Of a stretch of 64,000 nt of DNA, positions 1-40,872 are shown piece after piece (position 1 is the stretch's first letter; each line of letters begins with the position of its first letter). The translations under genes and the position numbers were made by a program. The notes beneath the pieces were generated by a model. It saw only the letters and a program-made list of their open reading frames with translations. It did not search any database and was not told the origin of the DNA. The stretch covers positions 1 to 64,000 of IMG/VR virus record IMGVR_UViG_3300008116_000027. The stretch is one strand, 5' to 3'. The stretch comes from a virus.

Positions 1-272
1 ATTTTGCCCCTATATTTATATATAAAAATAGGACATATATATCCAAGATGTACATATAGTACAAATCGGACATTATGTCCTAATATGATTATACTGTTAC
101 TTATAGGTTATAGTTACTGGACCACATAGTTCATTATATCTATCTATCTCTGCAGTCTTCCGTGCCTTTTCCGCCTTCTTCCATTTTCTAAAAGAAGCAA
201 GGGCGTGATTCTTATCCCGCCCATTGCCCTTCCATTTACGGGGTTTGCGTTGGCTAGATCCAGCAGCTTTGC

Positions 273-548
273 TCATGCCTGGATACCCACCTCATGAGCC
301 TCTATTACTTCAGCAAGATGTGAGGCAAGCATAATAGCCTCAGAGGTAAAACCTTCTTCCCAATACGCCTCAAACCTAGAAGCCTGTTCTTTAATGATTT
401 CGGTCATTAACTCCATTAGTCTATCTTGGGTATATAAAGGAAATCTATTTACAATTACACTAGCACATATAGAAGGATTAAACCAATGGTTATCCAATAC
501 TGTTGCTAATTGTTCTGCGATTTTATCTTCATCTGTTTTCTTTGCCAT
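273..548 (-). CDS. hypothetical protein (early region)
   Basis: 91-aa ORF preceded by AGAAAGGCGG and TGGTATAAT; same strand as the whole block. Confidence 0.75.
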   Translation of the reverse strand: MAKKTDEDKIAEQLATVLDNHWFNPSICASVIVNRFPLYTQDRLMELMTEIIKEQASRFEAYWEEGFTSEAIMLASHLAEVIEAHEVGIQA

Positions 549-632
549 ATCCGCCTTTCTAAAAGATTATACCAAAAAGGTTGGGGAAGGTCAATGTTTG
601 GGGGCCACTGACCCTCCCCAATGTTAGATAGT

Positions 633-779
633 TTACTTAGACTTGGTAGGAAGCTCTTTTGTAAACTGTACGCCATTCTTAACAGCCTCTGATAGAGCCT
701 GCTTAGCAGCACCTGAGAAGCGACCACGCTTGCCCACGGTAATGCCCTTGCTTACTAGATATTCACGTTTTGTTGTCAT
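633..779 (-). CDS. 48-aa Lsr2-like DNA-binding-domain peptide
   Basis: Translated by hand: MTTKREYLVSKGITVGKRGRFSGAAKQAL...; resembles the Lsr2 C-terminal motif (REW-x3-G-x2-V-x2-RGR); ATGA overlap with upstream gene. Confidence 0.6.
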   Translation of the reverse strand: MTTKREYLVSKGITVGKRGRFSGAAKQALSEAVKNGVQFTKELPTKSK

Positions 780-1222
780 TGTGTTGACCCTTCTAATACG
801 ACAGGCTCCGCCTTGAAACCTGATTCTTGCGTTCCATATTCAGTTGTGTTATCTGACTCCTCGTCAGAATCTTCGTCTTCGTCATCAAGCCAGTTGTCAT
901 CATCTAGGGCGACCAAGAAATTATTATTGATCATCCAATCCGTGACAGCCTCGTCCATGTACTCAGCGCCATACTCTAATGTAAATTGATCAGGCGGGTT
1001 ACCCCAGAGTTCCTCCCAGATATTATCTAGAGTTACTCCTTCTTTAACAACATATTCATTCCAATCAGATACAGTCTCATATGATTGATACTTATCTCGA
1101 ATAATATCCCAAGACCATAGCCATACTAATGGAATTCCTACATCCATATTATTTAAAGTATTTACTATTTGGTCCAATTGCATTTTGATCTTGACACCAC
1201 GATCATAGTCTGCATTATCCAC
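776..1222 (-). CDS. acidic hypothetical protein
   Basis: 148-aa ORF, GTG start after CAACGAAAGGG. Confidence 0.75.
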   Translation of the reverse strand: MDNADYDRGVKIKMQLDQIVNTLNNMDVGIPLVWLWSWDIIRDKYQSYETVSDWNEYVVKEGVTLDNIWEELWGNPPDQFTLEYGAEYMDEAVTDWMINNNFLVALDDDNWLDDEDEDSDEESDNTTEYGTQESGFKAEPVVLEGSTQ

Positions 1223-1469
1223 GTTGTTTAGCCCTTTCGTTGATAGCGAATGATAAATTATACGTCATAACATAGATATCTGTCAAGGCATCCAGCCTAC
1301 CTGATAAATATTGATATTCAGGATTATCTTGTAGCTCAGAAATGTCTAATAGTCTAGTTTCACATTCATACATTAAGTTTTTTAATTCTCCATGCATGAC
1401 ATCAGTTCCCGTTTCTCCCATATCTATCAGCTTTTGAAGATGTGGGCTTAATTCATCAGACATTATCAT
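1215..1469 (-). CDS. hypothetical protein
   Basis: ORF with GGAGGT RBS, overlapping the next gene. Confidence 0.7.
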   Translation of the reverse strand: MIMSDELSPHLQKLIDMGETGTDVMHGELKNLMYECETRLLDISELQDNPEYQYLSGRLDALTDIYVMTYNLSFAINERAKQRG

Positions 1470-1600
1470 TTGCTACCTCCAGTAGATGTCTAACTGCATG
1501 TATTTGTCCTTCTAAAAATATAAGATCTTCAGGGCTTTTATCTAATGGGTCTCTATCTTGATTAAGACTAATTAGATGTATATTCATATATTCAATCATC

Positions 1601-1798
1601 TTAGTATGATTCACCTTGTACATATCCTTCCGCTAATAGACCTTCAAAGAAATCCCATATGGTTAATAGACCTTGCTTAACGCTAGGGTCGGTGGCGGAA
1701 TCAATAGCAACAGTTAATGATGTACCAAACTCCTGTATATCCTTATATGTATATCCTAACATTCTATGTAGTATTCCTCTCCTGGTTCGACTTGCCAA
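1601..1798 (-). CDS. hypothetical protein (true start probably the internal MLGY)
   Basis: ORF track; AGGAGAGGA RBS precedes the internal ATG. Confidence 0.6.
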   Translation of the reverse strand: MASRTRRGILHRMLGYTYKDIQEFGTSLTVAIDSATDPSVKQGLLTIWDFFEGLLAEGYVQGESY

Positions 1799-1995
1799 TA
1801 TTCATTAAATTGTTTTTTGACGGATTCATCAGAGCACATGCTAGCCATTTCATAGTCAGCAATAAACATACCTTCGTCTAAATGACCTGATATCCAACTA
1901 TCAAATAAGTCCTCAGATATCTCTTGAACAATAGCATTTGCAATATGTTCAGGCATATCATCAAACATACTTGGTTTATCATTTGAATAACCCAT
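1756..1995 (-). CDS. acidic hypothetical protein
   Basis: ORF with CGAAAGGA RBS and promoter at 2020-2041. Confidence 0.8.
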   Translation of the reverse strand: MGYSNDKPSMFDDMPEHIANAIVQEISEDLFDSWISGHLDEGMFIADYEMASMCSDESVKKQFNEYWQVEPGEEYYIEC

Positions 1996-2152
1996 ATATA
2001 TCCTTTCGCTAGGACCTTAATTATATAACAGACCACTGACATTGTATATAGAATATAGGTGTGTTTTACACCACATGTCCAAAGCTTGAGATTTCAGGGA
2101 AATATATTTGACTTCCGTAAAGACAATATGCTACCCTCTCCTCTTTGAGGGC

Positions 2153-2277
2153 AAAAGAAATCCCCCCTGGGACAAGGGGGGATTAAGATGAATGGCTGCT
2201 AGGACCTCAACGAAAGGAAAAACCTGCCTTACTTAGCATCCAATAGATGCACCATTCTATGAATAGGCACAGGGCCT
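2153..2277 (-). ncRNA. candidate ~125-nt sRNA carrying an anti-RBS sequence UUUCCUUUCGUUG
   Basis: TGA-TATAAT at 2284-2292 (-), no ORF, ends in hairpin AATCCCCCC/GGGGGGATT plus T-tract; internal stems GAATGG/CCATTC and GCATC/GATGC. Confidence 0.6.
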
Positions 2278-2294
2278 AATCAAATTATATCACA

Positions 2295-2699
2295 CTAGAC
2301 TAGCAGTCTTTCTAGCGCATACTTCTCACAGAACGCTGTTAGGTCCATGGTAAAGATTGCTTCATTCTTCATACCTAAAACTTTATTCTCTAAGTTACGG
2401 TGATCGTCTTGCTCGTGTAATGAGAAGGTCTGATCTTTCCAGTTGATAACAGCAATCTTGTGCTCATTATCTCCAATTGAATTTACTTGAAGACCCCAGC
2501 CTGTTTCCATGTTCCATTGGTCTCCGATTAATTGGCTAATAGCAATACGTGTTGCATATGATTCATCTGTCCAACGAGGACGTGCTGCGATCACAGCATC
2601 CGCCAATTTGCCTAGCATGTTGTAGCCAGCCCAGTGCCCATATAGACATATGGTGTCACCCGCTCCGTCTACGAATACGTAATTTGCTCTGTCTCCCAT
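2295..2699 (-). CDS. conserved phage hypothetical protein (MGDRAN...YGHWAG type)
   Basis: 134-aa ORF, AAGGCGG RBS. Confidence 0.8.
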   Translation of the reverse strand: MGDRANYVFVDGAGDTICLYGHWAGYNMLGKLADAVIAARPRWTDESYATRIAISQLIGDQWNMETGWGLQVNSIGDNEHKIAVINWKDQTFSLHEQDDHRNLENKVLGMKNEAIFTMDLTAFCEKYALERLLV

Positions 2700-2700
2700 T

Positions 2701-2889
2701 TTAAACCGCCTTTTCTAGTTGAGGTATTTCTTCCGTTTTATTTAATTCTATCATTTCAAAGGCCCATTTGTCTAGGGTCTCTGAATTTTTATTTTTATGA
2801 TGTGAACAGAAAGCTAATTCACCGCCTGTACTACGAGCCAGGTATTTGGCTTGAGCTGGGCAGCTGTCGCATTTAATCCATTCGCTCAT
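2701..2889 (-). CDS. small Zn-finger protein (CxxC...FCxHH)
   Basis: CDSC and FCSHH motifs. Confidence 0.75.
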   Translation of the reverse strand: MSEWIKCDSCPAQAKYLARSTGGELAFCSHHKNKNSETLDKWAFEMIELNKTEEIPQLEKAV

Positions 2890-3032
2890 AGTTTATTGCT
2901 TTCTATCATGTCTGATAATCTATCTAATAACCATGAGTCAATATCTGCAATATCAATTTCCCGTAACTTATCAATCATTTCTTCACGGGCAAACTTATAT
3001 CCGTCTTGAAACCCATCTTTATAATCAGACAT
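2886..3032 (-). CDS. 48-aa hypothetical protein
   Basis: Translated by hand (MSDYKDGFQDGYKFAREEM...); fills the gap and overlaps both neighbours. Confidence 0.65.
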   Translation of the reverse strand: MSDYKDGFQDGYKFAREEMIDKLREIDIADIDSWLLDRLSDMIESNKL

Positions 3033-3264
3033 TTATCATCCTATCATATCTGTACGCTAATTCGTTATCAGCATACTTGCTCTCGATTAAAACCTTAAGT
3101 TGGTGCTTAGATATTAATCTAGTTACCTTCTCAATATTACCAGTTCCAATCTCGAAAGTCAATGCATCAAGATTATATGAATCAGGATCCAGGCCTCCAA
3201 CCTCAGCGTCCCATATAGAAAAATGGAACGCCTTAATTGAATCTGCTTTTAATTTATAATACAT
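3025..3264 (-). CDS. hypothetical protein
   Basis: ORF track 3025-3300; ATG at 3264 coupled to the upstream stop (TAATG). Confidence 0.65.
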   Translation of the reverse strand: MYYKLKADSIKAFHFSIWDAEVGGLDPDSYNLDALTFEIGTGNIEKVTRLISKHQLKVLIESKYADNELAYRYDRMINV

Positions 3265-3713
3265 TAGTTCCAATCCACATCTGTGTCTTCGATGCTCCAT
3301 GTGTTAACATCAACATTATGACTATTTGAATCTAATGATAATTCATCACCTAGATAATAATGTGCGTCAAAGTTTTCAACTTCATTAAATGGAACATCAA
3401 CCGTTACTTCAAATGATATAGTTCCAGTTACAGTTACTTGCTTAGATGGGTTAAGATCAAAGTATTCGCAGAGTTCACGAATTACATCATCTTTGTCATA
3501 GTTTGGATTAGACCATTCTATGATTTGATCATTTAGCCCGTCAATCTTATTTCGCAGGCTAAAGTACTCGGCAGTGCGTTGTCTAGCGTTTTCGAGCACC
3601 CATTCTAAATCTGTTACTTTTGTAATTGGAAATGTAACAGTTTCTCCGTCAATCACCTTGTACTGTACAAGGGCATTAGGATTATATGTGTCAGGTATTA
3701 CAGTTGATTCCAT
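3264..3713 (-). CDS. hypothetical protein
   Basis: 149-aa ORF, CAACGAAAGGAAA RBS, own promoter at 3744-3765. Confidence 0.85.
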   Translation of the reverse strand: MESTVIPDTYNPNALVQYKVIDGETVTFPITKVTDLEWVLENARQRTAEYFSLRNKIDGLNDQIIEWSNPNYDKDDVIRELCEYFDLNPSKQVTVTGTISFEVTVDVPFNEVENFDAHYYLGDELSLDSNSHNVDVNTWSIEDTDVDWN

Positions 3714-3714
3714 G

Positions 3715-4473
3715 TTAGTTTCCTTTCGTTGTGGTAGTGGCTAATTGTACACCATGGGTCTGACATTCTTTCATTGCTTCCTCATCTTGCCAAGAACCTT
3801 GATTGCATTCTGAGCAGAATTCACCGCAGCCGTCCTCACAATAATCTAATGTATTAAAGGATTGGCAAGCATAGCAGCGATTCTCGTATTCTAGTTTAGT
3901 TGTAACCTCACCATTTACAATCTCATATTCTCCTCCCCAGCCTTGCTCCTCTTCAAATTCTAAAGTAAGGACACAGTTCGGAATTAAGTTAGATAGTTTA
4001 ACTAATACAGAGACGGCAGGCGACCATGCAGTATTATATTTATATACTAGCCATTGGTCCTCACCATCAGACATATGCTCCAGTAGTTCAGTATCAGGAT
4101 ACTCGTCACCATCTGATACAGCAACATCCCATTTAGTTCCCCAATTAGAAGTATTCCAGTTATACCAGTCTTTCTGAGTCTTAGCATGCTCTACTTCTTT
4201 AGCAAACCAATCAGGGGAATTTGTATCTAGTCCTAGTCGTGCAGGTTGTTGAACATATTCTTCCATTGTAATACCATCCTCTAATGGAGAATGTATATTC
4301 CAAAAAGCAAAGACAGGATTAGAATAAGTAGACTTAGTTACTTCCATCTGCATAGTCTTCATGTTCCAACTATCATGCATTACTTCAAATGGCTGATTAA
4401 GTTTATCTTTAATTGAATCTACTTGGTCTTTAGGACCTTGTATAGTTAATGTGTTATACACCCAGTTAGGCAT
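3715..4473 (-). CDS. DUF1281/YubB ferredoxin-like domain protein with C-terminal Cys cluster
   Basis: MPNW start, DWYNWN..NWGTKWD and TAWSP motifs; start moved to the ATG after CAACGAAAGGA. Confidence 0.75.
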   Translation of the reverse strand: MPNWVYNTLTIQGPKDQVDSIKDKLNQPFEVMHDSWNMKTMQMEVTKSTYSNPVFAFWNIHSPLEDGITMEEYVQQPARLGLDTNSPDWFAKEVEHAKTQKDWYNWNTSNWGTKWDVAVSDGDEYPDTELLEHMSDGEDQWLVYKYNTAWSPAVSVLVKLSNLIPNCVLTLEFEEEQGWGGEYEIVNGEVTTKLEYENRCYACQSFNTLDYCEDGCGEFCSECNQGSWQDEEAMKECQTHGVQLATTTTKGN

Positions 4474-4595
4474 TTCATTCCTTTCGTTGAATGTCGCAAT
4501 TGTAGCAGAGTCAACTGACATTATCAAGGATTTTGGGGCTTTTTATATGTATGCCGTAAAAGAGCTATGTTGCCTTTAGCTCTGGGGGCAGCTTG

Positions 4596-4669
4596 CGATC
4601 CCAACGGGACTTGAACCCGTAGCCTCTACCGTGACAGGGTAACGATCTAACCAATTGATCTATGGGACC
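4596..4669 (-). tRNA. tRNA-Asp(GTC)
   Basis: Cloverleaf: acceptor GGTCCCA/TGGGATC, anticodon loop CTGTCAC, GTTCAAGTC T-loop; no encoded CCA. Confidence 0.93.
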
Positions 4670-4673
4670 AGAA

Positions 4674-4697
4674 TATAGGGCCCTTGCGGGCCCCATA
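4674..4697. terminator. hairpin after the DUF932 gene
   Basis: ATATAGGGCCC-TTGC-GGGCCCCATAT inverted repeat. Confidence 0.55.
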
Positions 4698-4701
4698 TTA
4701 T

Positions 4702-5718
4702 TTATACTAGTTGTAATTTATTTTGTACAACTTTTAACAAACGATTTTTTTCTGCGTTAATTGCAGGATCAAAACCGCTTGCAGATGCTAACATATTTTC
4801 AGTGTTAGTACCACGGGCATTGCGATGCCAATCTAAACGCTCAGTTAAAGCATTTAAAGCACCCCACGCATTACCAGCGATTGTGTGATTATATTCGCCA
4901 GTATAAATATCGTTAATTAAATTAACTTTATTTTCCCATTTCTTGATTGCACCCTTAACATCTTTATCAGGTTTTGGATAAGCAGCAAGAATGATTTCGT
5001 TAAATTGTTGAGCGGTAATTTCCGTCTCAATCATTAACTTAGCCATGATGTCGAATTTATCCATGTATGCATTGGCAAGACCTAAAGTCTCACGGGCAAC
5101 TTGAATGCGACCTTCCGCCGATTGTGTATGACGGATTTTGAAAGATTGCTTTACGCCATCTTTTTTCTTGATGCTACCCAATGCAAGATTGAGAGTATTA
5201 GCACACACAACACGAACGGGTGTTATGGATGCTTGAATTGCAATTGATCCATCATGCGATGTATTAATTAGCAAATATGTTTTAACCACATCTGCCACGC
5301 CGTTAGGATCGAGCACGGTCTCACGCTCTAAAGCAAGAGATCCAAATACAACACGTCCGCCACGGATTGAGCCAGCGGTCTCCCATCGGCCTCCACCATC
5401 TAGGATGTTATCACCAAATGCAAATAAATCTTCATTTTGCAATGGTACATAGCGCTCACCGACAATTCCTAAAACATCGGTTTGTGTTTTGTCCGTAGGA
5501 TTAGTACGCACAACATATTGATAGTTTTTATCGGATGTTAATTGAGATGGGATTTCTAAATCTTCTAATCTAACATTCCATCCGTTAAGATTTGCAGCAA
5601 CTAGCATTTCGCTAGTATTTTTTTCTTCTGTGAACACGGTACCTAAACCATGCCACGCAGGTTCACGGAATGATGCAAAACTTGCTACACCATTTTGTGA
5701 TTCTAGTTCATGAGCCAT
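4702..5718 (-). CDS. DUF932 family phage/plasmid protein (TIGR03299-like)
   Basis: MAHELE..AWHGLG, ETAGS..GGR, NTSHDGS, TPVRVVCANTL and RHT motifs. Confidence 0.9.
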   Translation of the reverse strand: MAHELESQNGVASFASFREPAWHGLGTVFTEEKNTSEMLVAANLNGWNVRLEDLEIPSQLTSDKNYQYVVRTNPTDKTQTDVLGIVGERYVPLQNEDLFAFGDNILDGGGRWETAGSIRGGRVVFGSLALERETVLDPNGVADVVKTYLLINTSHDGSIAIQASITPVRVVCANTLNLALGSIKKKDGVKQSFKIRHTQSAEGRIQVARETLGLANAYMDKFDIMAKLMIETEITAQQFNEIILAAYPKPDKDVKGAIKKWENKVNLINDIYTGEYNHTIAGNAWGALNALTERLDWHRNARGTNTENMLASASGFDPAINAEKNRLLKVVQNKLQLV

Positions 5719-5885
5719 TTTTATCCTTTCGTTTTGAGTTGCCTTATTCTAGCATACATGACTGACATCTGGCAATACTACTAAACATTCCAGGGGAAAA
5801 TTTGGACTTGACGTAAACAGAAAAATGCCCCCACAGCTTTGCGGGCAGGGAAATGGGCCAGGAGCAAGGACCTGGCCCAAGATTA

Positions 5886-6098
5886 TTAGATTAAAGAATG
5901 AATCTCTTCTGGAAAATAAGCAGCAAATATTTTTTTGTTATCTTTTGTATCAACTACATATGCTTTGACTGTTCCTTGAAAGCGTTTTATGTTTTGCTTA
6001 ACTGCTTTTGTAATTGCTTCACGATTTACATTTTCTTTAAAATAAAGAGTTAAATCGTGAGCTTTGTTTGCGTCGTAGATTTCTACACGATACCGCAT
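5886..6098 (-). CDS. hypothetical protein
   Basis: 70-aa ORF with AAAGGA RBS; followed by a GGGCCAGG/CCTGGCCC hairpin. Confidence 0.75.
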   Translation of the reverse strand: MRYRVEIYDANKAHDLTLYFKENVNREAITKAVKQNIKRFQGTVKAYVVDTKDNKKIFAAYFPEEIHSLI

Positions 6099-6167
6099 TT
6101 TATTCCTTTGTTAGTAGGGATAACTATTTTAACATAGGGGGCTAGATTTTGTCTAGCCCCCAGTTAA

Positions 6168-6590
6168 TTACAAGTATCTTGCGATAGCGTTGTATGTAGA
6201 AGTAGAAACTACTTCCTCATCGGTCATTTTAAGGATACGGATAGCGTTCTCTATCTCCTCTTTCATCTCACGATAACTATGAACATGGATTACCTCATAA
6301 TTACGCTCAGGCTCTTTTGGAAAGTCTTTCTCATCTATGATTAAATCAAAATCAACATTAAGAGTTGTGTTCCAAGAACGATAATTGGTGCGTAGGTTTT
6401 GTGCTTTGGCAATTTGTCCAACTGCCCATTTGCCAATATCCTTCTGCCACTTTTCGTATGCCTTCTTATATTTGGCTTCGTTCTCGTCTTGCTTTGTGTA
6501 GTCAGCCTCTATCTTTGCTAACTTTGTTTCTAGGGCTTTAATAACCTTAGCAGTTGCGATTTTTACCTGTATTGCTTTGCCTCTTGCCAT
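6168..6590 (-). CDS. hypothetical coiled-coil protein
   Basis: 140-aa ORF with AACGAAAGGA RBS and promoter. Confidence 0.85.
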   Translation of the reverse strand: MARGKAIQVKIATAKVIKALETKLAKIEADYTKQDENEAKYKKAYEKWQKDIGKWAVGQIAKAQNLRTNYRSWNTTLNVDFDLIIDEKDFPKEPERNYEVIHVHSYREMKEEIENAIRILKMTDEEVVSTSTYNAIARYL

Positions 6591-6657
6591 TGTATTCCTT
6601 TCGTTAGGTTGGTTGTATTGTAGCAGACCCTACCGACAATAGAGTCTGCTTATCTTA

Positions 6658-6801
6658 TTACTTAACTGATGCGCTAGTCCAGCGTTCCTTGCCATTTACA
6701 TCTAGCAAGATACGAGCAACACCTGAAGGGTGATTATCAATAGCCTTGATAATTCCCTGAATACCACTTTTAGTGGTTGTGTATAGTTGTCCGATTTCCA
6801 T
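6658..6801 (-). CDS. 47-aa hypothetical protein
   Basis: Translated by hand (MEIGQLYTTTKSGIQG...); own RBS and promoter at 6826-6847. Confidence 0.75.
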   Translation of the reverse strand: MEIGQLYTTTKSGIQGIIKAIDNHPSGVARILLDVNGKERWTSASVK

Positions 6802-6848
6802 TTGTTTCCTTTCGTTTAGGTTTGTATTATAGCACCCTCCACCGACAA

Positions 6849-7118
6849 TTAGTAGTCGGTTTCAGGTAGCCACGCTTCTAGGTGATGCGCTTCTATGATT
6901 GCTGAAGCAGGTGCTTGATCTCTGCCCTTCCATAGTACGCCTTCAGGTAATACGATCATCTTATCGTAGTCGTCCTCATAGTAAGCATCGATAGCATCGA
7001 TACATGGCTGTACCATTGATGCAGGTACGGGTGGATAATGATTACCTTGTAAGTGTATTAGTATTGCTTGATCTAAGTCAAAACTCTCAGCCAAGTCCAT
7101 TGCTGTATTTAGTCCCAT
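6849..7118 (-). CDS. hypothetical protein (HLQGNHYPPVP motif)
   Basis: 89-aa ORF coupled to the upstream stop. Confidence 0.8.
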   Translation of the reverse strand: MGLNTAMDLAESFDLDQAILIHLQGNHYPPVPASMVQPCIDAIDAYYEDDYDKMIVLPEGVLWKGRDQAPASAIIEAHHLEAWLPETDY

Positions 7119-7292
7119 TTATTCTAACTCCTCTAGTATAGTTTCGGATAGGTTTTCCATTTCGCTAATACTATCAACAAGGTCTGACATTTCTTTCTCT
7201 GTTAATAGTACTTTAGTAGTAAGGTCTGCTACCTTGCTATCATATATTGCTTTTTTTGTAGCCTCTGCTAATGATATTGCCGTTGCTAACAT
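7119..7292 (-). CDS. 57-aa hypothetical protein
   Basis: Translated by hand (MLATAISLAEATKKAIYD...); CAACGAAAGGAAA RBS and promoter at 7322-7343. Confidence 0.75.
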   Translation of the reverse strand: MLATAISLAEATKKAIYDSKVADLTTKVLLTEKEMSDLVDSISEMENLSETILEELE

Positions 7293-7346
7293 TTATTTCC
7301 TTTCGTTGTTGTAGTGGGTAGATTATACACCTACCCACCGACATTA

Positions 7347-7607
7347 TTAGGCTAAAACTACTAGAGCCTCAGAAGCACCAGCATTTACTCTATCTAACTC
7401 ATCCTGCAATTCCTCAACGCTTAGTTGAGTTGGGTCGCCAATAAGTTCTAGTGTCATGCGGATATTTTCAGCAGTAAACATTCCAGCAGGCAAGCGTTCT
7501 ACTTTAGGATAGAAAGAGCCTTGTGGGTCTAGCATAGAGTTAAACTTAACTCCATTAACTTCGAATGGGTAAGAGACCCAATTCGTTGTATCTAGCATTG
7601 TTTGCAT
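7347..7607 (-). CDS. hypothetical protein
   Basis: 86-aa ORF with RBS and promoter. Confidence 0.8.
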   Translation of the reverse strand: MQTMLDTTNWVSYPFEVNGVKFNSMLDPQGSFYPKVERLPAGMFTAENIRMTLELIGDPTQLSVEELQDELDRVNAGASEALVVLA

Positions 7608-7874
7608 GTATTTCCTTTCGTTTGATTAGTGGAATTATAGCAGGCCTAACTGACATTATCTAAAACACGCCACAAATTCCAGGGTGTTTTATATCACACT
7701 CTTAAAGACACGCCCGACCCCGCAGGTGTGTGGGCGCCTTTTATCCGCTAAGCCCGTTTTCATCTTTATCTGGTTTAGTATATGTGGCAACAAATAAAAA
7801 AATTATAAATGGAGCGATTATAAATAAACTTAATAAGGCGCCAATTATTTCACCTAACAAAAAATCCATGGGCC

Positions 7875-8594
7875 CTATTTCTTAGTAGCAGAAAATCTAA
7901 TATCTGCTTTACCATAAACACACAATCCGCAAGATACGCAAGCAGAACCGCTAGCAGAAATTAATGGAATGCTTTTATTGTTTTCAGGACACTTAGCGCC
8001 AGGCTTACCAATTAATTCTTTCATAGTATTTTCGGTAACGGCAAAAGTCTTCCCAAGATAAGCCAATCTAATTTTAGTACCAGTCTTACGCAGATCATGC
8101 GCTATATCTTTATTCTCATCATCCGTAGAATAATAAAGAGATAGATTAGCAATGTTATCTAGAATAAGCGCAGCAGACTTAACTCGTGTATAAACCCAGA
8201 ATTGAATATCAGCATTAGTTAAGATTACGTATTGCCATGCACGTGCATAGGTATCATTAAAGAAATCTCCATCCCAGTGGATACGGAATAATAATTTAGC
8301 ATTTTTCTTTTCACAATCTTTTCTAAAATCATTAATCATATTTTCTAATAGGTCTACCATAGTAGGCTCATCAGCGTCTTTTAATAAATTCCAATTGTGC
8401 ATGAGCACGTCTCTTACACCTTTATAAACTTTTTCTAATTTGCCAGCATAACACACGCTTTCGCATATGCTAGTAGCGCCAGGACATGAGAATGCTTTAC
8501 CAGCAGGCAACCCGAATGTATTAGCAATGGCAGGGGTCTTACCATTTTTAGAAACTAAATTAGTTACTTTTCTGTCATTAGATCTTTTTAACAT
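7875..8594 (-). CDS. GP88-like Cys-rich (putative Fe-S) protein
   Basis: FGLPAG...CPGA..IC...CYA, FRIHWDGDF, WVYTR and C-terminal CxxCxLC; leaderless ATG 7 nt after TATAAT. Confidence 0.7.
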   Translation of the reverse strand: MLKRSNDRKVTNLVSKNGKTPAIANTFGLPAGKAFSCPGATSICESVCYAGKLEKVYKGVRDVLMHNWNLLKDADEPTMVDLLENMINDFRKDCEKKNAKLLFRIHWDGDFFNDTYARAWQYVILTNADIQFWVYTRVKSAALILDNIANLSLYYSTDDENKDIAHDLRKTGTKIRLAYLGKTFAVTENTMKELIGKPGAKCPENNKSIPLISASGSACVSCGLCVYGKADIRFSATKK

Positions 8595-8623
8595 GGGGGT
8601 AATTATAGCAGGGGCAGGTGACA

Positions 8624-8779
8624 TTAGAGGTCACCCATCTCTGCATCTGCCATGCGTGTCATAGCCCAATCAGCTGCTAGATCACGATCATACACGGCCA
8701 TGCCTTCCGTAGTATAGCCACGGGCACAAATTGTGCAAATAGAGTGATTAGTACAGTAGCATGAATTGATATCGTTCAT
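8624..8779 (-). CDS. 51-aa Cys-rich hypothetical protein
   Basis: Start MNDINSCYC after AACGAAAGG and promoter at 8806-8827. Confidence 0.7.
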   Translation of the reverse strand: MNDINSCYCTNHSICTICARGYTTEGMAVYDRDLAADWAMTRMADAEMGDL

Positions 8780-8913
8780 TAGTTGACCTTTCGTTAAGTA
8801 ATGGAATACTAACAGATCACACTGACATTTACAAATCGACACGCCGCAGATTTCGGGGGATTTTTTTAATGTGGCGTAAATCACAAAATGCCCCCACAGG
8901 GTTTGTGGGCGCA

Positions 8914-8929
8914 TCGAACGTTTGTTCTA
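8914..8929. promoter_or_regulatory. LexA (SOS) box-like site
   Basis: TCGAAC-GTTT-GTTCTA versus the actinobacterial consensus TCGAAC-N4-GTTCGA; second copy TCGAAC-AAAA-GTTCGG at 11040-11055. Confidence 0.55.
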
Positions 8930-8933
8930 ATAA

Positions 8934-9062
8934 TTAATTAGAAGCTTTTTTATGTTTTATTTTTCTAGTATATTTTTTTTTATTGCGAACAGGTTGCGCC
9001 GCATTTGATCGGCGCAATTCCTGAATGCGTTTTACTTTATTTAGAAGAGAAGTTTGGAACAT
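8934..9062 (-). CDS. 42-aa highly basic peptide
   Basis: Translated by hand: MFQTSLLNKVKRIQELRRSNAAQPVRNKKKYTRKIKHKKASN. Confidence 0.6.
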   Translation of the reverse strand: MFQTSLLNKVKRIQELRRSNAAQPVRNKKKYTRKIKHKKASN

Positions 9063-9228
9063 TATAACCGCTTGCCTCATAGAATTTATTTACATTAAAA
9101 TTAGAATTCTCTTTGGCACACAACTCCGCAAAATCTAAAACCATTTTAGAAAAAATAGCGGGGTGAGTTTTGTTAGAGTTATATTTTAAAATTGTAGCAA
9201 TTTCTTTAAAATGTTTTTTTGTCATCAT
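9037..9228 (-). CDS. hypothetical protein (MTKKHF...NFNVNKF type)
   Basis: 63-aa ORF, ATGA overlap. Confidence 0.75.
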   Translation of the reverse strand: MMTKKHFKEIATILKYNSNKTHPAIFSKMVLDFAELCAKENSNFNVNKFYEASGYNVPNFSSK

Positions 9229-9425
9229 TTAGCAGACACCAAACCAATCTGATTAAAGTTTTTAGTATACATTTTGCCATTAGGCATTTCTAAATTATAG
9301 GTTGCGTATTCATTAGCAAAACCGTGATCTTTACATCTAGCAAAAGCCTCAAACGCTTCTAATGCGTCAGAGAATTGGTGTGTAAATTCTAGTTTGCCGT
9401 CATACCAAGTAAATAGTTTAAACAT
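9225..9425 (-). CDS. hypothetical protein
   Basis: ATG at 9425 coupled to the upstream stop. Confidence 0.7.
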   Translation of the reverse strand: MFKLFTWYDGKLEFTHQFSDALEAFEAFARCKDHGFANEYATYNLEMPNGKMYTKNFNQIGLVSAK

Positions 9426-9556
9426 TAAATCCCCCAAGTTTCTAAAGCGCAATCGCAACTTTTAACGTCAAATTCTTTTTCATCTCCATAGAATACAAAT
9501 CCTGCGCCACCGCATTCATCACACTCTACGCCAATTATTTCTGCGATATTTCCCAT
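9425..9556 (-). CDS. 43-aa Zn-finger-like peptide (CDECGG...CDC)
   Basis: Translated by hand; RBS and promoter at 9584-9605. Confidence 0.7.
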   Translation of the reverse strand: MGNIAEIIGVECDECGGAGFVFYGDEKEFDVKSCDCALETWGI

Positions 9557-9735
9557 TTTATTTCCTTCCGTTTATTTAGCAGTATTGTATCAGTTATCAC
9601 TGACAATTGGCAAAACTGGAGAGCCTTCTAACTCTAAGCCAATTTCTAAATTAAGTAATTCTGAAGGCGTGGCTTCGGATAAATCTACCCAGCCAGCACC
9701 TTCATCATTTAAGCGAAAAATTTCTACATATCCCA

Positions 9736-9930
9736 TTATTCACCAACCTTTACGCCAACAGTTCGCACCTTACGGGCTGAACCAACTTCCACTAAATAAC
9801 TTTCGATATTCATTCCGTAGAATGTAGCACGAGGATCTTTTTCGGCAGAAACAATTTCGCCTTCCAAAGTATTTGATCGATAGTGTTTACCCACTAACAG
9901 GTTTTCTATTGTGTAGATATTTGCAGACAT
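9736..9930 (-). CDS. hypothetical protein
   Basis: 64-aa ORF with promoter at 9962-9983; a 48-aa ORF (9590-9736) follows. Confidence 0.75.
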   Translation of the reverse strand: MSANIYTIENLLVGKHYRSNTLEGEIVSAEKDPRATFYGMNIESYLVEVGSARKVRTVGVKVGE

Positions 9931-10032
9931 TGCAACCTTCTTTCTTTTTGGTTATGCCGATATTATACTAGACCCCACCGACAATTTGCATATTACTTGT
10001 GAGTAATTCCATATTTTGAGACGCTCAACTCA

Positions 10033-10224
10033 TGTGATCATAATCACATGCGACACGCCAGACACGCCCGAAGTTATCCACGACACGCCCGAAGTTATCC
10101 ACAAATTTTCAGGGTTTTTCCACATCTGTGCGTAAACCTGTGGATAACCGCCCACAAAAGATTGGGGGCAGCTATCGCCTTTGTCAAGGCGACACGCCGT
10201 CTATTCTTTGTGAGTTTGCTCACA
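10033..10224. promoter_or_regulatory. cluster of CRP-type palindromes, DnaA boxes and GACAC motifs
   Basis: TGTGA-N6-TCACA at 10033-10048 and 10209-10224; DnaA-type boxes at 10074, 10095, 10116 and 10139; GACACGCC at 10052, 10061, 10082 and 10191; 21-bp tandem repeat at 10061-10102. Confidence 0.8.
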
Positions 10225-10824
10225 TACGCATTTAGTATATGCGCCTGCGTTTAACCTGCCACATTTAGGGCAGGTATAAAATCCGCTAGGGTTAGCCATT
10301 TATTTATCTCTCCTAATTAATTTAATCGAATAGATAAATGCGATAGTGCCTACTAATAGCCATGTCGGAATACTAATTTGTAATCCTATGCTATCAGCGT
10401 ATAAACCAAATGCGTTTAAGTCTAAGTATAATTCCATTTATTCTGCCTCCTCCCAATCTAGTGTTAATTCATTTTCGATTATCTCATCAAGGCTAATCAT
10501 GTCCTCATCAAATAGCGTTTCGCTATTGTGTTTATCTAGTTTTTCTAATTCGTCTAAGTGTGTATAAGCGTCTGCCACATCTAGTTGGATAGTGTCCCAT
10601 TTAGTCATCATTAGTTATTACCTCCATTAACAATAGCACCGACAATAGCAATTATAGTTATCGTGCCTAACACAATAGGCAAAACAATATGAGGATAATC
10701 CTCTACCCAATCAAAAAATAGCATATTAGTTATTCTCCTCATCAATTCCAAACATCTCAGCAAACACTTTGTTTGCTTGTTGTAAGGCTTCTATCGCCTC
10801 GTTTATCTTATCCATGTTATCCAT
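10201..10824 (-). other. run of five tightly packed micro-ORFs (32, 37, 57, 45 and 32 aa; two hydrophobic, one CxxC)
   Basis: Translated by hand: 10726-10824, 10611-10724, 10438-10611, 10300-10437, 10201-10299; abutting or overlapping stops and starts, purine-rich RBSs. Confidence 0.7.
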
Positions 10825-10900
10825 TTTCTTACCTTCTTTCGTTGTTGTTATGGTGAAACCTTAGCATACCTAACCGACAATCGGCAAGGCGACACACCCC

Positions 10901-11080
10901 TTAGAGGGTGTGAGATACCTCACATGCGGTATCGCATCTAGGCACATCTGCCATTATTAAGCGTAGCAGACCTACACGCTCAGACTTAGTAAGTCTAAGA
11001 CGGCTAACGGTATCAGGCTTGATACCTCCATGATTATATTCGAACAAAAGTTCGGTATAGATATCGTCTAAGTTATTCAT
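10901..11080 (-). CDS. 59-aa first gene of the leftward block
   Basis: Translated by hand (MNNLDDIYTELLFEYNHGG...); ACGAAAGGA RBS. Confidence 0.7.
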   Translation of the reverse strand: MNNLDDIYTELLFEYNHGGIKPDTVSRLRLTKSERVGLLRLIMADVPRCDTACEVSHTL

Positions 11081-11112
11081 TTATTTATCCTTTCGTAGAT
11101 AATTTTAGTTGA

Positions 11113-11164
11113 GAGCGGTTATTCGCTAGGCTCACCTTTCGGGTTATTTGCTAGGCTCACGCTC
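11113..11164 (-). repeat. twin 19-nt repeat enclosed by a stem, in a 5' UTR
   Basis: GGTTATTCGCTAGGCTCAC (11117-11135) and GGTTATTTGCTAGGCTCAC (11142-11160), flanked by GAGCG/CGCTC. Confidence 0.8.
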
Positions 11165-11423
11165 TAATTCTTTATTTTGTTATACTATAATCATATAAGG
11201 GGGCACTGACATTTTGCCACTCACAAATCGGACATGTCGGACATTTTAAAATAAATCTTTTCTAAATCGTGTGATATACCCCACATATGGTCGCTCTAAT
11301 AGGACAAATCGGACATTTTAAAACCATGGATCATACAAATAAAATCTCTATTAACATTTTATGAAATCTGATATTATAGTCAACTAGGATTATATGGATA
11401 TATATGGGGGGATTTAAGAAAGA

Positions 11424-12137
11424 TTACTTAACCCAGATGGGGGCGTTTATATTTTTATCTAAAGCTTCTTGCAACATTTTTTGATTAAATTCAGTTTCCT
11501 GATATTGCTCTAATGTAGGAACATTTTCTTCAGATGCTACAATAAAGTTTGTATGGGCATATCTAGGACCTTTTGTTACAGCTTTTACTCCATGTCTATA
11601 TTTTTTGCTTGCACTGTGGATAACAAGGTCGCCCTTCTCTGGTTTGTATTCTACCTCTTGTTCTGGATAAAATAGCTCCCCGCCTTCAAAATCATTTATG
11701 TATACTACAAATCCGTACTGCACTATATGACAAGTATTGTGCGGATCGTATAAGTTTCCTTTTTCAATAGCATCAAAGTATCCAATTAAACTTCCTTCGT
11801 CGTGATCATCTGGATGTCCTGGACTATCCCAATGAACCTCTAAAGATTGACCTTCTATCATTTTAGAAACTCCATTAGATGGAAGTGGCTTATACTCTGG
11901 TCCAAAAAATTCTTCTGTTTTTTTCCACAATTCGTCTAATAAAGCATCTCCTTGAAAAACTTGATTAGGTGCTTTAATTTCAGAGTCATGATCCCATTTA
12001 TCTTTATTTAACCAATAATCATCGTGAAACCCATTTACAATTTCTGTATATTTATCTGCTTCTTCATTTGAAATAAAATTTTTATATACATATATCTCAT
12101 TGGCTAATTTAATTAAATTATTGTTATTTTGAAACAT
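11424..12137 (-). CDS. 2OG-Fe(II) oxygenase (prolyl 4-hydroxylase-like)
   Basis: HWD...YINDFEGGELFY...GDLVIH...HGVKAV..GPRY. Confidence 0.88.
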   Translation of the reverse strand: MFQNNNNLIKLANEIYVYKNFISNEEADKYTEIVNGFHDDYWLNKDKWDHDSEIKAPNQVFQGDALLDELWKKTEEFFGPEYKPLPSNGVSKMIEGQSLEVHWDSPGHPDDHDEGSLIGYFDAIEKGNLYDPHNTCHIVQYGFVVYINDFEGGELFYPEQEVEYKPEKGDLVIHSASKKYRHGVKAVTKGPRYAHTNFIVASEENVPTLEQYQETEFNQKMLQEALDKNINAPIWVK

Positions 12138-12174
12138 ATGTATATTATAGCAAATATAGTATACTAAACACTAT

Positions 12175-12247
12175 TGGTCCATAGCTCAATCGGCAGAGCA
12201 CTGAGCTGTTAACTCAGGGGTTCCTGGTTCGAGTCCAGGTGGACCAG
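12175..12247 (+). tRNA. tRNA-Asn(GTT)
   Basis: Acceptor TGGTCCA/TGGACCA, anticodon arm CTGAG-CTGTTAA-CTCAG, GTTCGAGTC. Confidence 0.95.
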
Positions 12248-12269
12248 CATATATTACAAGGAGGTAAAT

Positions 12270-12362
12270 ATGGAACCAAATAAAATGACACCAGAAGGAT
12301 TACTTACAATTGGTGCACTTATTGTGGCTTTAGTAATTCTTTCTATTGTTATAGCATCTTAA
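12270..12362 (+). CDS. 30-aa single-TM micro-protein
   Basis: AAGGAGGT RBS; MEPNKMTPEGLLTIGALIVALVILSIVIAS; fills the gap between two tRNAs. Confidence 0.75.
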   Translation: MEPNKMTPEGLLTIGALIVALVILSIVIAS

Positions 12363-12366
12363 TTTT

Positions 12367-12438
12367 GGCTTCATCGTCTATCGGTTAGGACATCGCCCTT
12401 TCACGGCGGAAAGACGGGTTCGATTCCCGTTGGAGCTA
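12367..12438 (+). tRNA. tRNA-Glu(TTC)
   Basis: Acceptor GGCTTCA/TGGAGCT, anticodon arm TCGCC-CTTTCAC-GGCGG, GTTCGATTC. Confidence 0.93.
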
Positions 12439-12458
12439 CATTTGATATAATAGATAAT

Positions 12459-13238
12459 ATGAAAGTCTCTATGTTACATCCAGATATTTGGTATTTTGAA
12501 GATGCCATTCCAGAATCAAAAAAATTTTTATCTTTACTAGAAGACAATAAAAATATTACAAGCGTTATACCAGATTGGTCTACTTGGCTTGATTCTTTTG
12601 CTAGAGGCACAGATGAAATAATTATTAATAAACCGTTGGCCGCTGGAGAAGGCGGCGCTCCTATGGGTGTAGACAAGTTTGTTGACTGGGACATGTCAAT
12701 AAATGATTACGGCAGAATTTGGCCAAGAATAGTTCCCGACTCGGTAGTGCATAAAGAGGCTTATAAAACATTAAAGTTAATAGACATTCCATTTAAAAAA
12801 GTATTAGACTATTATTGGTCTAAAAATTCAGAGTTACCTGAACTTAAATATATTAGTAAAAATTATCTTATTAGAAAATACTCAACTGGAACATCTATGC
12901 CAATCCATGTAGATGCTAGCGGAAGAGCTGGTGCTACAGATGACGACAAAATATCTATGGATCTGGCTGCTTTGATTTACTTAAACGACGACTATACGGG
13001 CGGGGAATTAAATTTTGTAGATTTAGGCATAAAACTTAAACCATCTGCTGGAAGCATTGTAATTTTTGACGGCATAAAGCATCAGCATGAATCTACCCTA
13101 ATTACATCTGGTAACAAGATATACATTCCATTTTATATGCACACAAAATACGGTTTAATTTCCTGTTTTAGAGAACCTGTCGAAGCAGGCGGCAATCAGA
13201 CTTTTATTTCCAACCAAATACCCAGGTTGACAGAATAA
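12459..13238 (+). CDS. 2OG-Fe(II) oxygenase
   Basis: HVD...YLNDDYTGGEL.F...AGSIVIF...HES...GNK. Confidence 0.88.
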   Translation: MKVSMLHPDIWYFEDAIPESKKFLSLLEDNKNITSVIPDWSTWLDSFARGTDEIIINKPLAAGEGGAPMGVDKFVDWDMSINDYGRIWPRIVPDSVVHKEAYKTLKLIDIPFKKVLDYYWSKNSELPELKYISKNYLIRKYSTGTSMPIHVDASGRAGATDDDKISMDLAALIYLNDDYTGGELNFVDLGIKLKPSAGSIVIFDGIKHQHESTLITSGNKIYIPFYMHTKYGLISCFREPVEAGGNQTFISNQIPRLTE

Positions 13239-30446: not shown

Positions 30447-31166
30447 ATGCAAGATATTTATGATATAAACGATAATCCATGGTTTACAAAAGATAGATCA
30501 GAATCAACTTCTTTTAGGGTAAATAGATCTTTTGGTAATATTAAAGTTTTAAATCCAGGTATTGGATTAAATATTTATGAATCAGCTATTCCAAGCAGTG
30601 TTTGCGAAACATCAATTAAAACATTAGAAGATAAGCTAACAAATGGCAACATGTATAAATGGTCAGAAGCACAAGTTACGACCTCAGACAAACCAGTAAA
30701 ATCTGCAAGAGATTGCGTAGATTTTAAATTTAAACCAGAAAATCTTGGAAAAAGAAATGAAAATAATGCAGAACTTCTAGATATGCATGAATCCATTTAT
30801 AATGTATTAAAAAAATGCGTAGATGATTATTGTCAATATTGGGGAATTAATGTTGTATATTATGAAGCTTTTAATTTTGTGAAATACACCAGCCCAGGAC
30901 AACATTTTAGAGTTCATGCTGATCATGGTCCACACTATAATTGTACAGTTTCAGCTGTAATATATTTAAATGATGATTACGAGGGCGGGGAGATAGCATT
31001 TCCAAGATTAGATAAATTAGTATATAAACCAAAACGTGGTGACGTAGTAATTTTTCCATCAAACTATATATACGAACATTCTTCAGAACCAATGATTTCT
31101 GGAGATAAATACTCTGTTGTAATTATGATGGATATTAACCTATTAGGACATAAGGAGAACAATTAA
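30447..31166 (+). CDS. 2OG-Fe(II) oxygenase (prolyl 4-hydroxylase-like)
   Basis: HADHG, YLNDDYEGGEI.F, GDVVIFPSNYIYEH and SGDKYS. Confidence 0.92.
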   Translation: MQDIYDINDNPWFTKDRSESTSFRVNRSFGNIKVLNPGIGLNIYESAIPSSVCETSIKTLEDKLTNGNMYKWSEAQVTTSDKPVKSARDCVDFKFKPENLGKRNENNAELLDMHESIYNVLKKCVDDYCQYWGINVVYYEAFNFVKYTSPGQHFRVHADHGPHYNCTVSAVIYLNDDYEGGEIAFPRLDKLVYKPKRGDVVIFPSNYIYEHSSEPMISGDKYSVVIMMDINLLGHKENN

Positions 31167-39021: not shown

Positions 39022-40872
39022 ATGTCATATAAACTTAAAATATTAAAAGACCATCCTATTGGATTTTGGCAACTTGATGATGTGGCTACAAATCCTACTT
39101 TTGACTTTACTGATATTTTAGAAAAATATGATACCTATCAAGATTTATTAGATGCATATGAAGACTATGCAAATATAAACTATTTTGCAGAAGATAGTTC
39201 TGGATGCTCTAATACTGGACTGTATGTCGGAACTTTTGATACTAATAAAAAATATTTTCCTTTATCTCCAGGAGGAAGATATTCTATAGATATAACATCA
39301 TCTAAAAGTATAGATTTCCCAATAATTAATAGTTACTATAAAAATAATGCACCTGGCGGTTTTGCTACAAGAGATTATGGAGATAATGATTTTACACTAG
39401 AATGCTGGATCTACCCAGAAATAACCACTAATTCTTTAACAACAATATTTGCCGATAGTAGTAAAAATGTTGGCATATTTTACCAAAATGGAAATATCAT
39501 TTTTAAATTAGATCAAGAACTTTTAGAATATACATTACCAATTATAAATAAATCAATGCATATAGTTGCAGTATATTTAGTAACAGAAGCTCATTTATAT
39601 ATAGATGGCAAACTATCCATTAGTAAAACAATATCTTCTAATCCATTTACCAATACTGAAATTTTATTAACCTCTGGGCCCACATCAAATTTAAACGATA
39701 AATTTTTAATAGACGATATAGCAGTATATAGATATGGTCTATCTAATATAAAAATATTAGATCATTATTATAATGATAGCTATACAAATCCATCTCAAAT
39801 AATACAAGTAGACAATGGAGAAATTTTTGAATTTTACGATACAGATATAAGTAAAGTTTTTTCTTATTCATATCCTTTAAATAGGCCCTGGCAAGAAGTC
39901 GTGACAGAAGATTTATATTATGACCAAACAAATCAATATATACAAATTAAAAAAAGTGGCGTACAAGAGTCTAAGTCTATTGTAATAGAAGATACAATAT
40001 ACTTACCAGCAGCAACTTCTATAAATTCTTCAAAAATAGATTGGTTTGGAGATAATGGAATTACTGTTGAAACTAGTATTAATGGAGAAGATTATGAATT
40101 GTGTATCAACGGACAGTCTATACCACAATACACCTCATTAAATTTTAACAATAGTAGAGTTTTAAATATAAAAATAACAATAGGCTCAACGGACATTTCT
40201 AAATATTTACCAAAATTATATAATTTAAATATTAGTTTTTATAATAATCAAATTATGTATTCAAAAAATGGAACAAGCTATTTGTCAAAAATTGAAAATA
40301 AAGACTATTATTTAGGAGAAAATAAATACCCAATTTTATCTAGGGATCCAAGAAATGGAATATTGTGTCCAAGTAACTCTGGATTTAATATTAATTTATT
40401 TCAATTAAAACAATCAATAGAATTTTTTTATACACCATATAGTTTAAATAAAGGTCTACTAATTAGCTCAATTATAGATGAAGACGGGGCAGCCAGCGAA
40501 TATTCATGGAATACAGATGGATCAATTAATCAAACTAACATAGAGTCTATTTATGTCAATGGTATAGATGTTTCTCTAGAAGATGACATATCTAATATAT
40601 TTACATTAAACGATATACATCACGTTGTGATTAATTTTACAGACCCTATATATGGGCTAGCAACAATCAACTACAAGTCATCTGGTTCAACAAAAGCCCT
40701 ATATCAATATATGTCATTTTACCAGAATTCATTAAGTTATAATACTATAATTAATCATTATCGTTTATATACCTCTAGAGACCTATATCAAACAAGTTAT
40801 TCTTCCATGTTTATGTCAGAAAACTCAGTTAATCTATATAATAATGACTGGATTGTGGTACAAAACTCATAA
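39022..40872 (+). CDS. LamG/ConA-like domain virion protein
   Basis: DHPIGFWQLD, DFTLECW, HIVAVY...LYIDG and IDDIAVYRYGL motifs. Confidence 0.75.
   Translation: MSYKLKILKDHPIGFWQLDDVATNPTFDFTDILEKYDTYQDLLDAYEDYANINYFAEDSSGCSNTGLYVGTFDTNKKYFPLSPGGRYSIDITSSKSIDFPIINSYYKNNAPGGFATRDYGDNDFTLECWIYPEITTNSLTTIFADSSKNVGIFYQNGNIIFKLDQELLEYTLPIINKSMHIVAVYLVTEAHLYIDGKLSISKTISSNPFTNTEILLTSGPTSNLNDKFLIDDIAVYRYGLSNIKILDHYYNDSYTNPSQIIQVDNGEIFEFYDTDISKVFSYSYPLNRPWQEVVTEDLYYDQTNQYIQIKKSGVQESKSIVIEDTIYLPAATSINSSKIDWFGDNGITVETSINGEDYELCINGQSIPQYTSLNFNNSRVLNIKITIGSTDISKYLPKLYNLNISFYNNQIMYSKNGTSYLSKIENKDYYLGENKYPILSRDPRNGILCPSNSGFNINLFQLKQSIEFFYTPYSLNKGLLISSIIDEDGAASEYSWNTDGSINQTNIESIYVNGIDVSLEDDISNIFTLNDIHHVVINFTDPIYGLATINYKSSGSTKALYQYMSFYQNSLSYNTIINHYRLYTSRDLYQTSYSSMFMSENSVNLYNNDWIVVQNS

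Follow-up and report, generated by a model that had tools for sequence, protein, structure and literature searches.

In the viral record IMGVR_UViG_3300008116_000027 of IMG/VR, a block of small genes on the minus strand is headed by an array of 15 promoters, each of which carries a TGTCRG-type box exactly 10 bp upstream of a TANNNT -10 element. There is a strong case, built on sequence and geometry, that these sites belong to the PafBC-type, or RecA-NDp (RecA-independent DNA-damage), promoter class of actinobacteria. Promoters that depend on PafBC (RecA-NDp, recA P1-type) have reportedly been described in Mycobacterium and other Actinobacteria by Gamulin in 2004 and by Muller in 2018. To our knowledge, sigma adaptation by PafBC has been described solely in the response of hosts to DNA damage. 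The PafBC alarm for single-stranded DNA (ssDNA) belongs to a sensor family that also controls several anti-phage systems, and full-text literature searches (PafBC together with phage; RecA-NDp) retrieved no paper on such promoters in phages. The stretch analysed here, hereafter the window, comprises positions 1-64,000 of the 76,885-bp record, whose completeness is put at 71% by CheckV and whose guanine-plus-cytosine (GC) content is about 35%. The new elements provided by this work are a scan of the spacing, the compensation between box and -35, an anchor for the geometry in a leaderless gene, a negative result in cultured relatives and a scan of metagenomic recA genes.

An array of TGTCRG promoters on one strand

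Exact matches to TGTCRG-N10-TANNNT on the minus strand number 14, all of them within 2020-11211, and a relaxed search adds a fifteenth site on that strand, TGTCAC-N10-TATAAT at 8602-8623. A previous sequence-only reading of this DNA had counted 14 copies including the TGTCAC one; the array itself stands, with the count corrected to 14 exact sites plus one variant, and the 10-nucleotide (nt) spacer that it called invariant is indeed shared by all of them. Shuffled sequence yields 0.86 matches on average and five at most, and none of 100 shuffles reaches 15. Outside the block the motif is absent from the 76.9-kb record, apart from a single plus-strand match in the end of a structural gene (40814..40835), which is probably due to chance and lies outside the system. 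Moreover, 14 of the 16 same-strand TGTCRG hexamers present in positions 1-12200 are linked to a promoter.

A start codon is found downstream of every one of the 15 sites, 24-33 nt past the -10 element in 12 of them, and ACGAAAGGA occurs exactly at eight sites and as a near variant at four more, in agreement with the prior claim that each copy lies upstream of a gene start, usually followed by a ribosome-binding site. The GTC triplet of the box is invariant (15/15), and it is also retained in the variants TGTCTG, TGTCAC and TGTCCC of the relatives. At the TGTCAC site, the ATG of a GP88-family gene begins 7 nt past TATAAT, and the Pfam match of the protein begins at that methionine. The gene thus appears to be leaderless, which would place the hexamer at about -29 to -24, taking the start of transcription from this geometry; the earlier positioning of the box near -26 is borne out in these terms. 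Several promoters sit inside the 3' end of the upstream gene, and terminator-like hairpins precede some of the units (8893-8909 and 5830-5845). We take the 15 sites to be real promoters of the small-gene block, and the block is probably an early one.

The rest of the phage relies on two other promoter types, as had been proposed for the remainder of the window. The former is TTGACA-N17/18-TAnAAT, found for instance before 30447, 69875 and 73312, and the latter a leaderless TGn-TAnAAT at 12459 (+), 12137 (-), 15439 (-) and 66832 (+). At the far minus-strand end of the block, towards the lower coordinates, the promoters also turn canonical (TTGACA-N18-TATAAT at 1257-1286 and TTGACC-N17-TATAAT at 566-594). 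The TGTCRG promoters therefore constitute a separate regulatory class.

Conservation of this class was followed in the loci of 80 relatives (1.33 Mb), which were fetched via their DUF932 gene and show protein identities of 82-97%. Matches to the motif total 540 on the gene strand and 63 on the other, against seven for a reversed control, and five complete relatives have theirs restricted to a single block of some 10 kb and to a single strand. When the length of the spacer was scanned across the family, N10 was found 502 times, N9 six times and N11 never, a rigidity that fits an element which a single complex reads jointly with the -10. From 386 distinct sites the logo AAW-TGTCAG-T-S-S-N4-TG-N-TAnAAT-T was obtained, and the variability of spacers and flanks indicates that the sites are not copies of a single cassette. 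The box is asymmetric and has no palindromic partner, as expected of a heterodimer in which PafB alone touches it. Orphan boxes located away from a -10 are almost non-existent, and a -35 consensus is absent from the logo.

Resemblance to PafBC promoters and the proposed mechanism

The consensus established for PafBC in vivo by chromatin immunoprecipitation sequencing (ChIP-seq) is tGTCgg(N10)tA(N3)T, without any -35 consensus, and the contact made by PafB spans -23 to -28, where residues R46 and R50 read two guanines of GTC (PMC8635444). The phage sites have the TGTCRG box of these promoters, its exact 10-bp distance from TAnnnT, its location near -26 and its invariant GTC; the box is likewise asymmetric and often followed by T (TG in the phage), and no -35 consensus emerges from the logo, although part of the sites do carry a -35 (see below). 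Of the features that define the class, a bipartite motif, a box spaced for contact at -23 to -28 (relative to the start deduced above) and the GTC triplet are present. The equation of the motif with the known PafBC-type damage promoter, made from sequence alone, thus finds support in its identity to the published consensus, in the rigid spacing and asymmetric box, in the evidence that the record is an actinophage, and in the same promoter standing before recA of low-GC actinobacteria (see below). On the other hand, the phage carries an array of 15 such promoters on small genes of no known function whereas the published ones serve repair genes, and it prefers A at position 5 of the box, mostly has a TGn and bears a -35 at a fifth of its sites.

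The presence of this promoter type in possible hosts was addressed by scanning metagenome contigs of the Joint Genome Institute (JGI) for the motif and then, at a recA-like distance, for codons specifying [F/Y]GKGS[V/I]M. All 80 loci examined proved to be recA N-termini, with the motif 5-55 nt upstream and a GC content of 44-74%, and some 71-73 of them encode RecA of actinobacterial type (DREKAL...GKGSVMRLG), though that peptide is universal in bacteria. At the low-GC end, two contigs of 44% GC (L140 and L124) carry TGTCAGTTAGGGCAGTTATCTT 32 nt from the ATG, one of 47% (L133) has the TGTCAG form and seven of 50-52% have the TGTCGG form. The RecA of L140 is 100% identical to a protein from an 'Actinobacteria bacterium' metagenome-assembled genome (MAG), 92% identical to that of 'actinobacterium acAMD-5' and 85-87% identical to proteins of 'Candidatus Nanopelagicales' MAGs. 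In addition, four contigs of 50-52% GC (L093, L157, L167 and L096) contain next to recA a gene for a 121-aa helix-turn-helix (HTH) protein, similar to Xre and ClgR, with a TGTCRG-N10-TANNNT of its own for which no selection had been made; this gene is presumed to be a second member of the PafBC regulon in low-GC actinobacteria. These data show that low-GC actinobacteria of the kind that the phage could infect carry PafBC-type recA promoters, and that the A-form is used at low GC. It has been reviewed that the Pup-proteasome locus and its associated pafBC genes occur in all Actinobacteria, and that the RecA-NDp response extends beyond mycobacteria (PMC8223512).

In the model that we consider somewhat better than an even bet, PafBC of the host would adapt SigA-RNA polymerase to these promoters and tie the block to cellular ssDNA. 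Host RNA polymerase with its housekeeping sigma factor would read the -10 (TAnAAT, mostly with TGn), while the TGTCRG box, located at about -28 to -23 with exactly 10 bp between it and the -10, would be read by the host PafBC heterodimer placed between sigma domain 4 and the DNA, in what is termed sigma adaptation. PafBC is constantly present, becomes active only with bound ssDNA and needs at least 6 nt of it, longer stretches working better (PMC11804915). Since it would act solely when bound to ssDNA, the block would be coupled to ssDNA appearing in the cell, for which the processing of entering linear DNA, phage replication and pre-existing damage are candidate sources. The block could be immediate-early, or it could be switched on once replication yields ssDNA; the second option would suit the canonical promoters that stand before the replication genes at 69.8-75 kb. 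The binding of PafBC to the sites, its presence in the host, the early timing of the block and the source of ssDNA are the parts of this model that we infer.

A bolder version, which we put forward only tentatively, is that a whole abundant clade of lytic lake phages may have swapped ordinary early promoters for those of host PafBC type, such that ssDNA ignites a takeover or anti-defence block, and that some 15 sites per genome could sequester PafBC and so dampen host repair or defences under PafBC control. The ssDNA could then arise from entry and resection of the linear genome, from the onset of replication or from sunlight damage to the host. Titration of PafBC away from host repair genes by 15 sites per genome copy is speculation. 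As cited in PMC12848934, Rafique et al. 2025 links pafBC to mycobacteriophage resistance. If the proposal were true, it would offer a clear case of a virus that uses the host ssDNA alarm as its own switch, for a whole gene class and in widespread lake phages; it would also provide a sequence-defined, testable promoter set for uncultured freshwater actinobacteria, whose transcription control is barely known, and point to a link between successful infection and DNA damage such as that caused by sunlight.

Alternative readers and the role of the -35

Several observations weigh against control of the block by host PafBC. Position 5 of the box is A in 91% of family sites while mycobacteria prefer G, although the low-GC recA promoters likewise use A there. 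Six cultured relatives with PafBC-bearing hosts do not use the motif: no enrichment was detected in Jay2Jay, Blueeyedbeauty, Wakanda, Grayson, Coruscant or Emma1919, which makes the promoter class an innovation of the aquatic clade. Because the motif was a condition of the recA scan, the latter demonstrates the presence of the promoter type in such lineages, and neither its frequency nor the identity of the host. An early block gated by damage would be a risky design for a lytic phage. Finally, the prior statement that the hexamer is not a -35 element holds with respect to the lack of a consensus but was overstated, as three of the 15 sites (9584, 5746 and 4499) match TTGACA in five of six positions at 17-18 bp. 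Across the family, 20-25% of sites match TTGACA in at least five of six positions at that distance, compared with less than 1% at control offsets. Ten of the 15 sites have an extended -10 (TGn), and together with the better -35 elements this implies that many of them could fire with SigA alone.

The last set of data also speaks for another explanation, to which we assign quite a low probability, namely that these are ordinary SigA extended -10 promoters, some with a -35, and that TGTCRG is an operator in the spacer, e.g., for a phage shut-off repressor that silences the block later. In line with it, an unbiased alignment of the orthologous DUF932 promoter from 59 distinct relatives has mostly TTGCAT or TTGACA, one base, and then TGTCAG, and in three relatives (L072, L026 and L036) the box has been lost from this promoter while the -35 and -10 were kept. 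The relationship between box and -35 was scored in candidates defined across the family by an extended -10, a Shine-Dalgarno sequence and an ATG. The mean -35 score is 3.55 with a TGTCRG box and 3.99 without it (p = 0.0025), and the best mean, 4.94, belongs to promoters with degraded boxes (TGTCTG, TGTCAC). A weaker -35 alongside the box and a better one where the box is degraded are the behaviour expected of an activating recognition element that substitutes for the -35; this, and a spacing exact to the base pair, argue against a mere repressor operator, given that a repressor needs no spacer fixed to that degree across about 500 sites. Unlike the stoperators of mycobacteriophage L5, moreover, the boxes hardly ever occur away from a -10. 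Those 13-bp elements (GGTGGMTGTCAAG, bound by the repressor gp71) are similarly asymmetric, contain TGTCA and are repeated in one orientation, and the GP88 family is common to the present phage and those of cluster A; nevertheless, they are scattered within transcription units without being locked to a -10, and their flank is GGTGGM instead of AAW, for which reasons L5-type stoperators were rejected. With an operator, the promoters that possess neither TGn nor -35 (11190, 9962 and 3744) would be very weak. If PafBC is the reader, these three should depend fully on the adaptor, and basal firing would be allowed elsewhere by the TGn and the minority of -35 elements. As for chance, or the copying of one duplicated cassette without a function of its own, its probability is negligible: nothing beyond the general AT-richness of the sequence speaks for it, and it is refuted by the shuffles, by the spacer scan and by family counts in which hundreds of sites with differing spacers and flanks are conserved.

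A different protein might also read the same geometry. We regard it as unlikely that an unrecognised adaptor recognises TGTCRG at -26 and makes the bridge to sigma; such a protein might be made by the phage, injected with its DNA, or be another host factor of WYL or SARP type, by analogy with MotA/AsiA of T4, SiwR and AfsR. Consistent with this possibility, SiwR (PMC10693628) and AfsR (PMC11804915) are activators that work via the -26 region or adapt SigA, the majority of the block genes fall into no known family, and the motif is limited to the aquatic clade. A small HTH protein (57-91 aa) with a sub-threshold match to sigma-70 region 4 is encoded outside the block in four of the five complete relatives (G004:81175-81249, G002:25897-25965, G003:6757-6828 and G005:46067-46138). 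This protein, which the present record (71% complete) lacks, is a candidate for a phage regulator. However, the box is that of PafBC and matches neither the 19-bp palindrome of SiwR, with GGA at -26, nor the direct repeats of AfsR, nor SARP repeats, and SiwR was discarded as the reader on account of its palindrome. The first promoter of the block already uses the box, and upstream of it on that strand there is only the ordinary promoter of an oxygenase gene. Six-frame searches of this record and the five complete relatives gave no match to WYL, HTH_11, HTH_PafC, Sigma70 region 2 or AsiA, so that the phage-encoded PafBC mimic once suggested finds no support in these six records. Promoters for a phage sigma factor were likewise dismissed, the only hits being sub-threshold and region 4-like. 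The middle promoters of T4 (MotA box at -30, AsiA/MotA) are comparable in that a gene class is set by a box at a short fixed distance from the -10 that replaces the -35, but they differ in box sequence and spacing, and here the factor would come from the host and not from the phage; an appropriation of T4 type was set aside because no AsiA was found in the six records and the box differs, MotA itself not having been searched. The motif precedes host-type recA, and hence host PafBC should see the phage sites anyway.

The phage, its relatives and the genes of the block

The record is supported as an uncultured, low-GC, lake-type phage of actinobacteria. Its portal is 55-59% identical to the portals of Streptomyces BE-cluster phages (Stanwilliamsviridae), and its GP88-family protein has matches in 283 mycobacteriophage and 99 Streptomyces phage records. 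WhiB, which the literature treats as a marker of actinophages (PMC10202952), is encoded by all five complete relatives (104-117 kb, CheckV 96-100%). By tblastn the family WhiB is an orthologue of that of BE-cluster and Rhodococcus phages; it was thus inherited within the virus lineage and is uninformative on the host. The DUF932 protein has 458 relatives in IMG/VR, placing the phage in an abundant uncultured clade. An ATG stands 6-7 nt past TGn-TAnAAT or TATAAT at 8594-8623 (-), 12137 (-), 12459 (+), 15439 (-) and, in the record, 66832 (+), and such apparently leaderless genes, typical of actinobacterial expression, lend independent support to the host phylum. By megablast, the block gave no match in cultured phages.

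BE-cluster phages, e.g., Jay2Jay, and SPO1 with its host-takeover module likewise have, close to one end of the genome, a small-gene block of about 10 kb that lies on the other strand from the structural genes and has many closely spaced promoters and terminators. While portal and WhiB are homologous between the BE cluster and this phage, the block of Jay2Jay employs TTGTAT/TTGCAT-N17-TAGACT with an upstream CGGACA element. A sequence ATGTCCG(A/T)TTT brackets the block studied here (61-80 and 11228-11316), and is also seen about 40 nt upstream of the DUF932 promoter in relatives L010-L089. Its core in reverse complement, CGGACAT, resembles the CGGACA that lies upstream of the Jay2Jay early promoters, and the wider phage group may have this upstream element in common.

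Direct searches for the host gave no host signal. Homologues of WhiB were found in phage or metagenome proteins only, and in the Atlas in viral WhiB clusters only; a homologue search with the ThyX of Jay2Jay retrieved phages and no host protein. When genome contigs were scanned with the family WhiB, the single match was a 4-kb contig (L092, CAYZIG010000046.1) within a 0.7-Mb 'Candidatus Saccharibacteria' MAG (G006). Given that eight other genomes of that family (0.7-1.1 Mb) are devoid of WhiB, L092 is a mis-binned phage fragment and no sign of a saccharibacterial host. Among metatranscriptomes, an aquatic run (X1) contains contigs from relatives, at 90-95% identity for the most part, that cover 26 of the 30 bins of window positions 1-13000, and three lake runs contain essentially nothing of that region; contigs reveal neither where transcripts start nor their strand or level, and may stem from DNA carry-over, so these data speak neither for nor against the transcription starts.

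All promoters of the array lie on the minus strand, and they are described here in the direction of transcription. The most upstream one, promoter 1 (11190..11211, TGTCAG-N10-TATGAT), has neither TGn nor -35 and is followed by a 109-nt leader to the ATG at 11080. Promoter 2 (10858..10879) is TGTCGG-N10-TAAGGT with TGn. Promoter 3 (9962..9983, TGTCGG-N10-TATAAT), again devoid of TGn and -35, has the gene 9736-9930 downstream, and promoter 4 (9584..9605, TGTCAG-N10-TACAAT) combines TGn with a TTGCCA at 18 bp. A terminator-like hairpin, that of 8893-8909, stands upstream of promoter 5 (8806..8827, TGTCAG-N10-TAGTAT). The variant promoter 6 (8602..8623, TGTCAC-N10-TATAAT) drives the leaderless GP88-family gene, with its ATG at 8594. 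It is followed by promoter 7 (7634..7655, TGTCAG-N10-TATAAT with TGn), by promoter 8 (7322..7343, TGTCGG-N10-TATAAT), and by promoter 9 (7168..7189, TGTCAG-N10-TAGTAT), which lies within the final part of the preceding gene, 49 nt ahead of the ATG at 7118, and whose 22-mer is identical in the relative G001. Promoters 10 (6826..6847, TGTCGG-N10-TATAAT) and 11 (6617..6638, TGTCGG-N10-TACAAT) both have TGn. The DUF932 gene is served by promoter 12 (5746..5767, TGTCAG-N10-TAGAAT with TGn), which has a TTGCCA at 18 bp, and promoter 13 (4499..4520, TGTCAG-N10-TACAAT with TGn) has a TTGATA at 17 bp. Promoter 14 (3744..3765, TGTCAG-N10-TACAAT) sits inside the end of the upstream gene and possesses neither TGn nor -35, and promoter 15 (2020..2041, TGTCAG-N10-TATAAT) is the last of the class.

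Searches of the block genes against PHROGs and Pfam assigned no function beyond three Pfam families, all on the minus strand: the GP88-family gene (7875..8594), named after gp88 of mycobacteriophage L5, the DUF932 gene (4702..5718) and a gene with a DUF1281_C (Api92-like ferredoxin-like) domain (3715..4473). A tRNA-Asp lies within the block on the same strand (4595..4669). Near its upstream promoters, three perfect TGTGA-N6-TCACA palindromes of CRP/GlxR type fall within 900 bp (10033, 10209 and 10909), and six minus-strand copies of GGCGTGTC are found at 7707, 8838, 10052, 10061, 10082 and 10191. Elsewhere in the window, genes for 2-oxoglutarate-Fe(II) (2OG-Fe(II)) oxygenases are numerous (11424-12137 (-), 12459-13238 (+) and 30447-31822 (+)), and an Mtd_N-type tail protein (26526-29000) is followed by a protein that combines fn3 with a Hint domain at its C terminus (29013-30350). 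These oxygenase, tail and Hint genes are structural or modification genes unrelated to the promoter finding.

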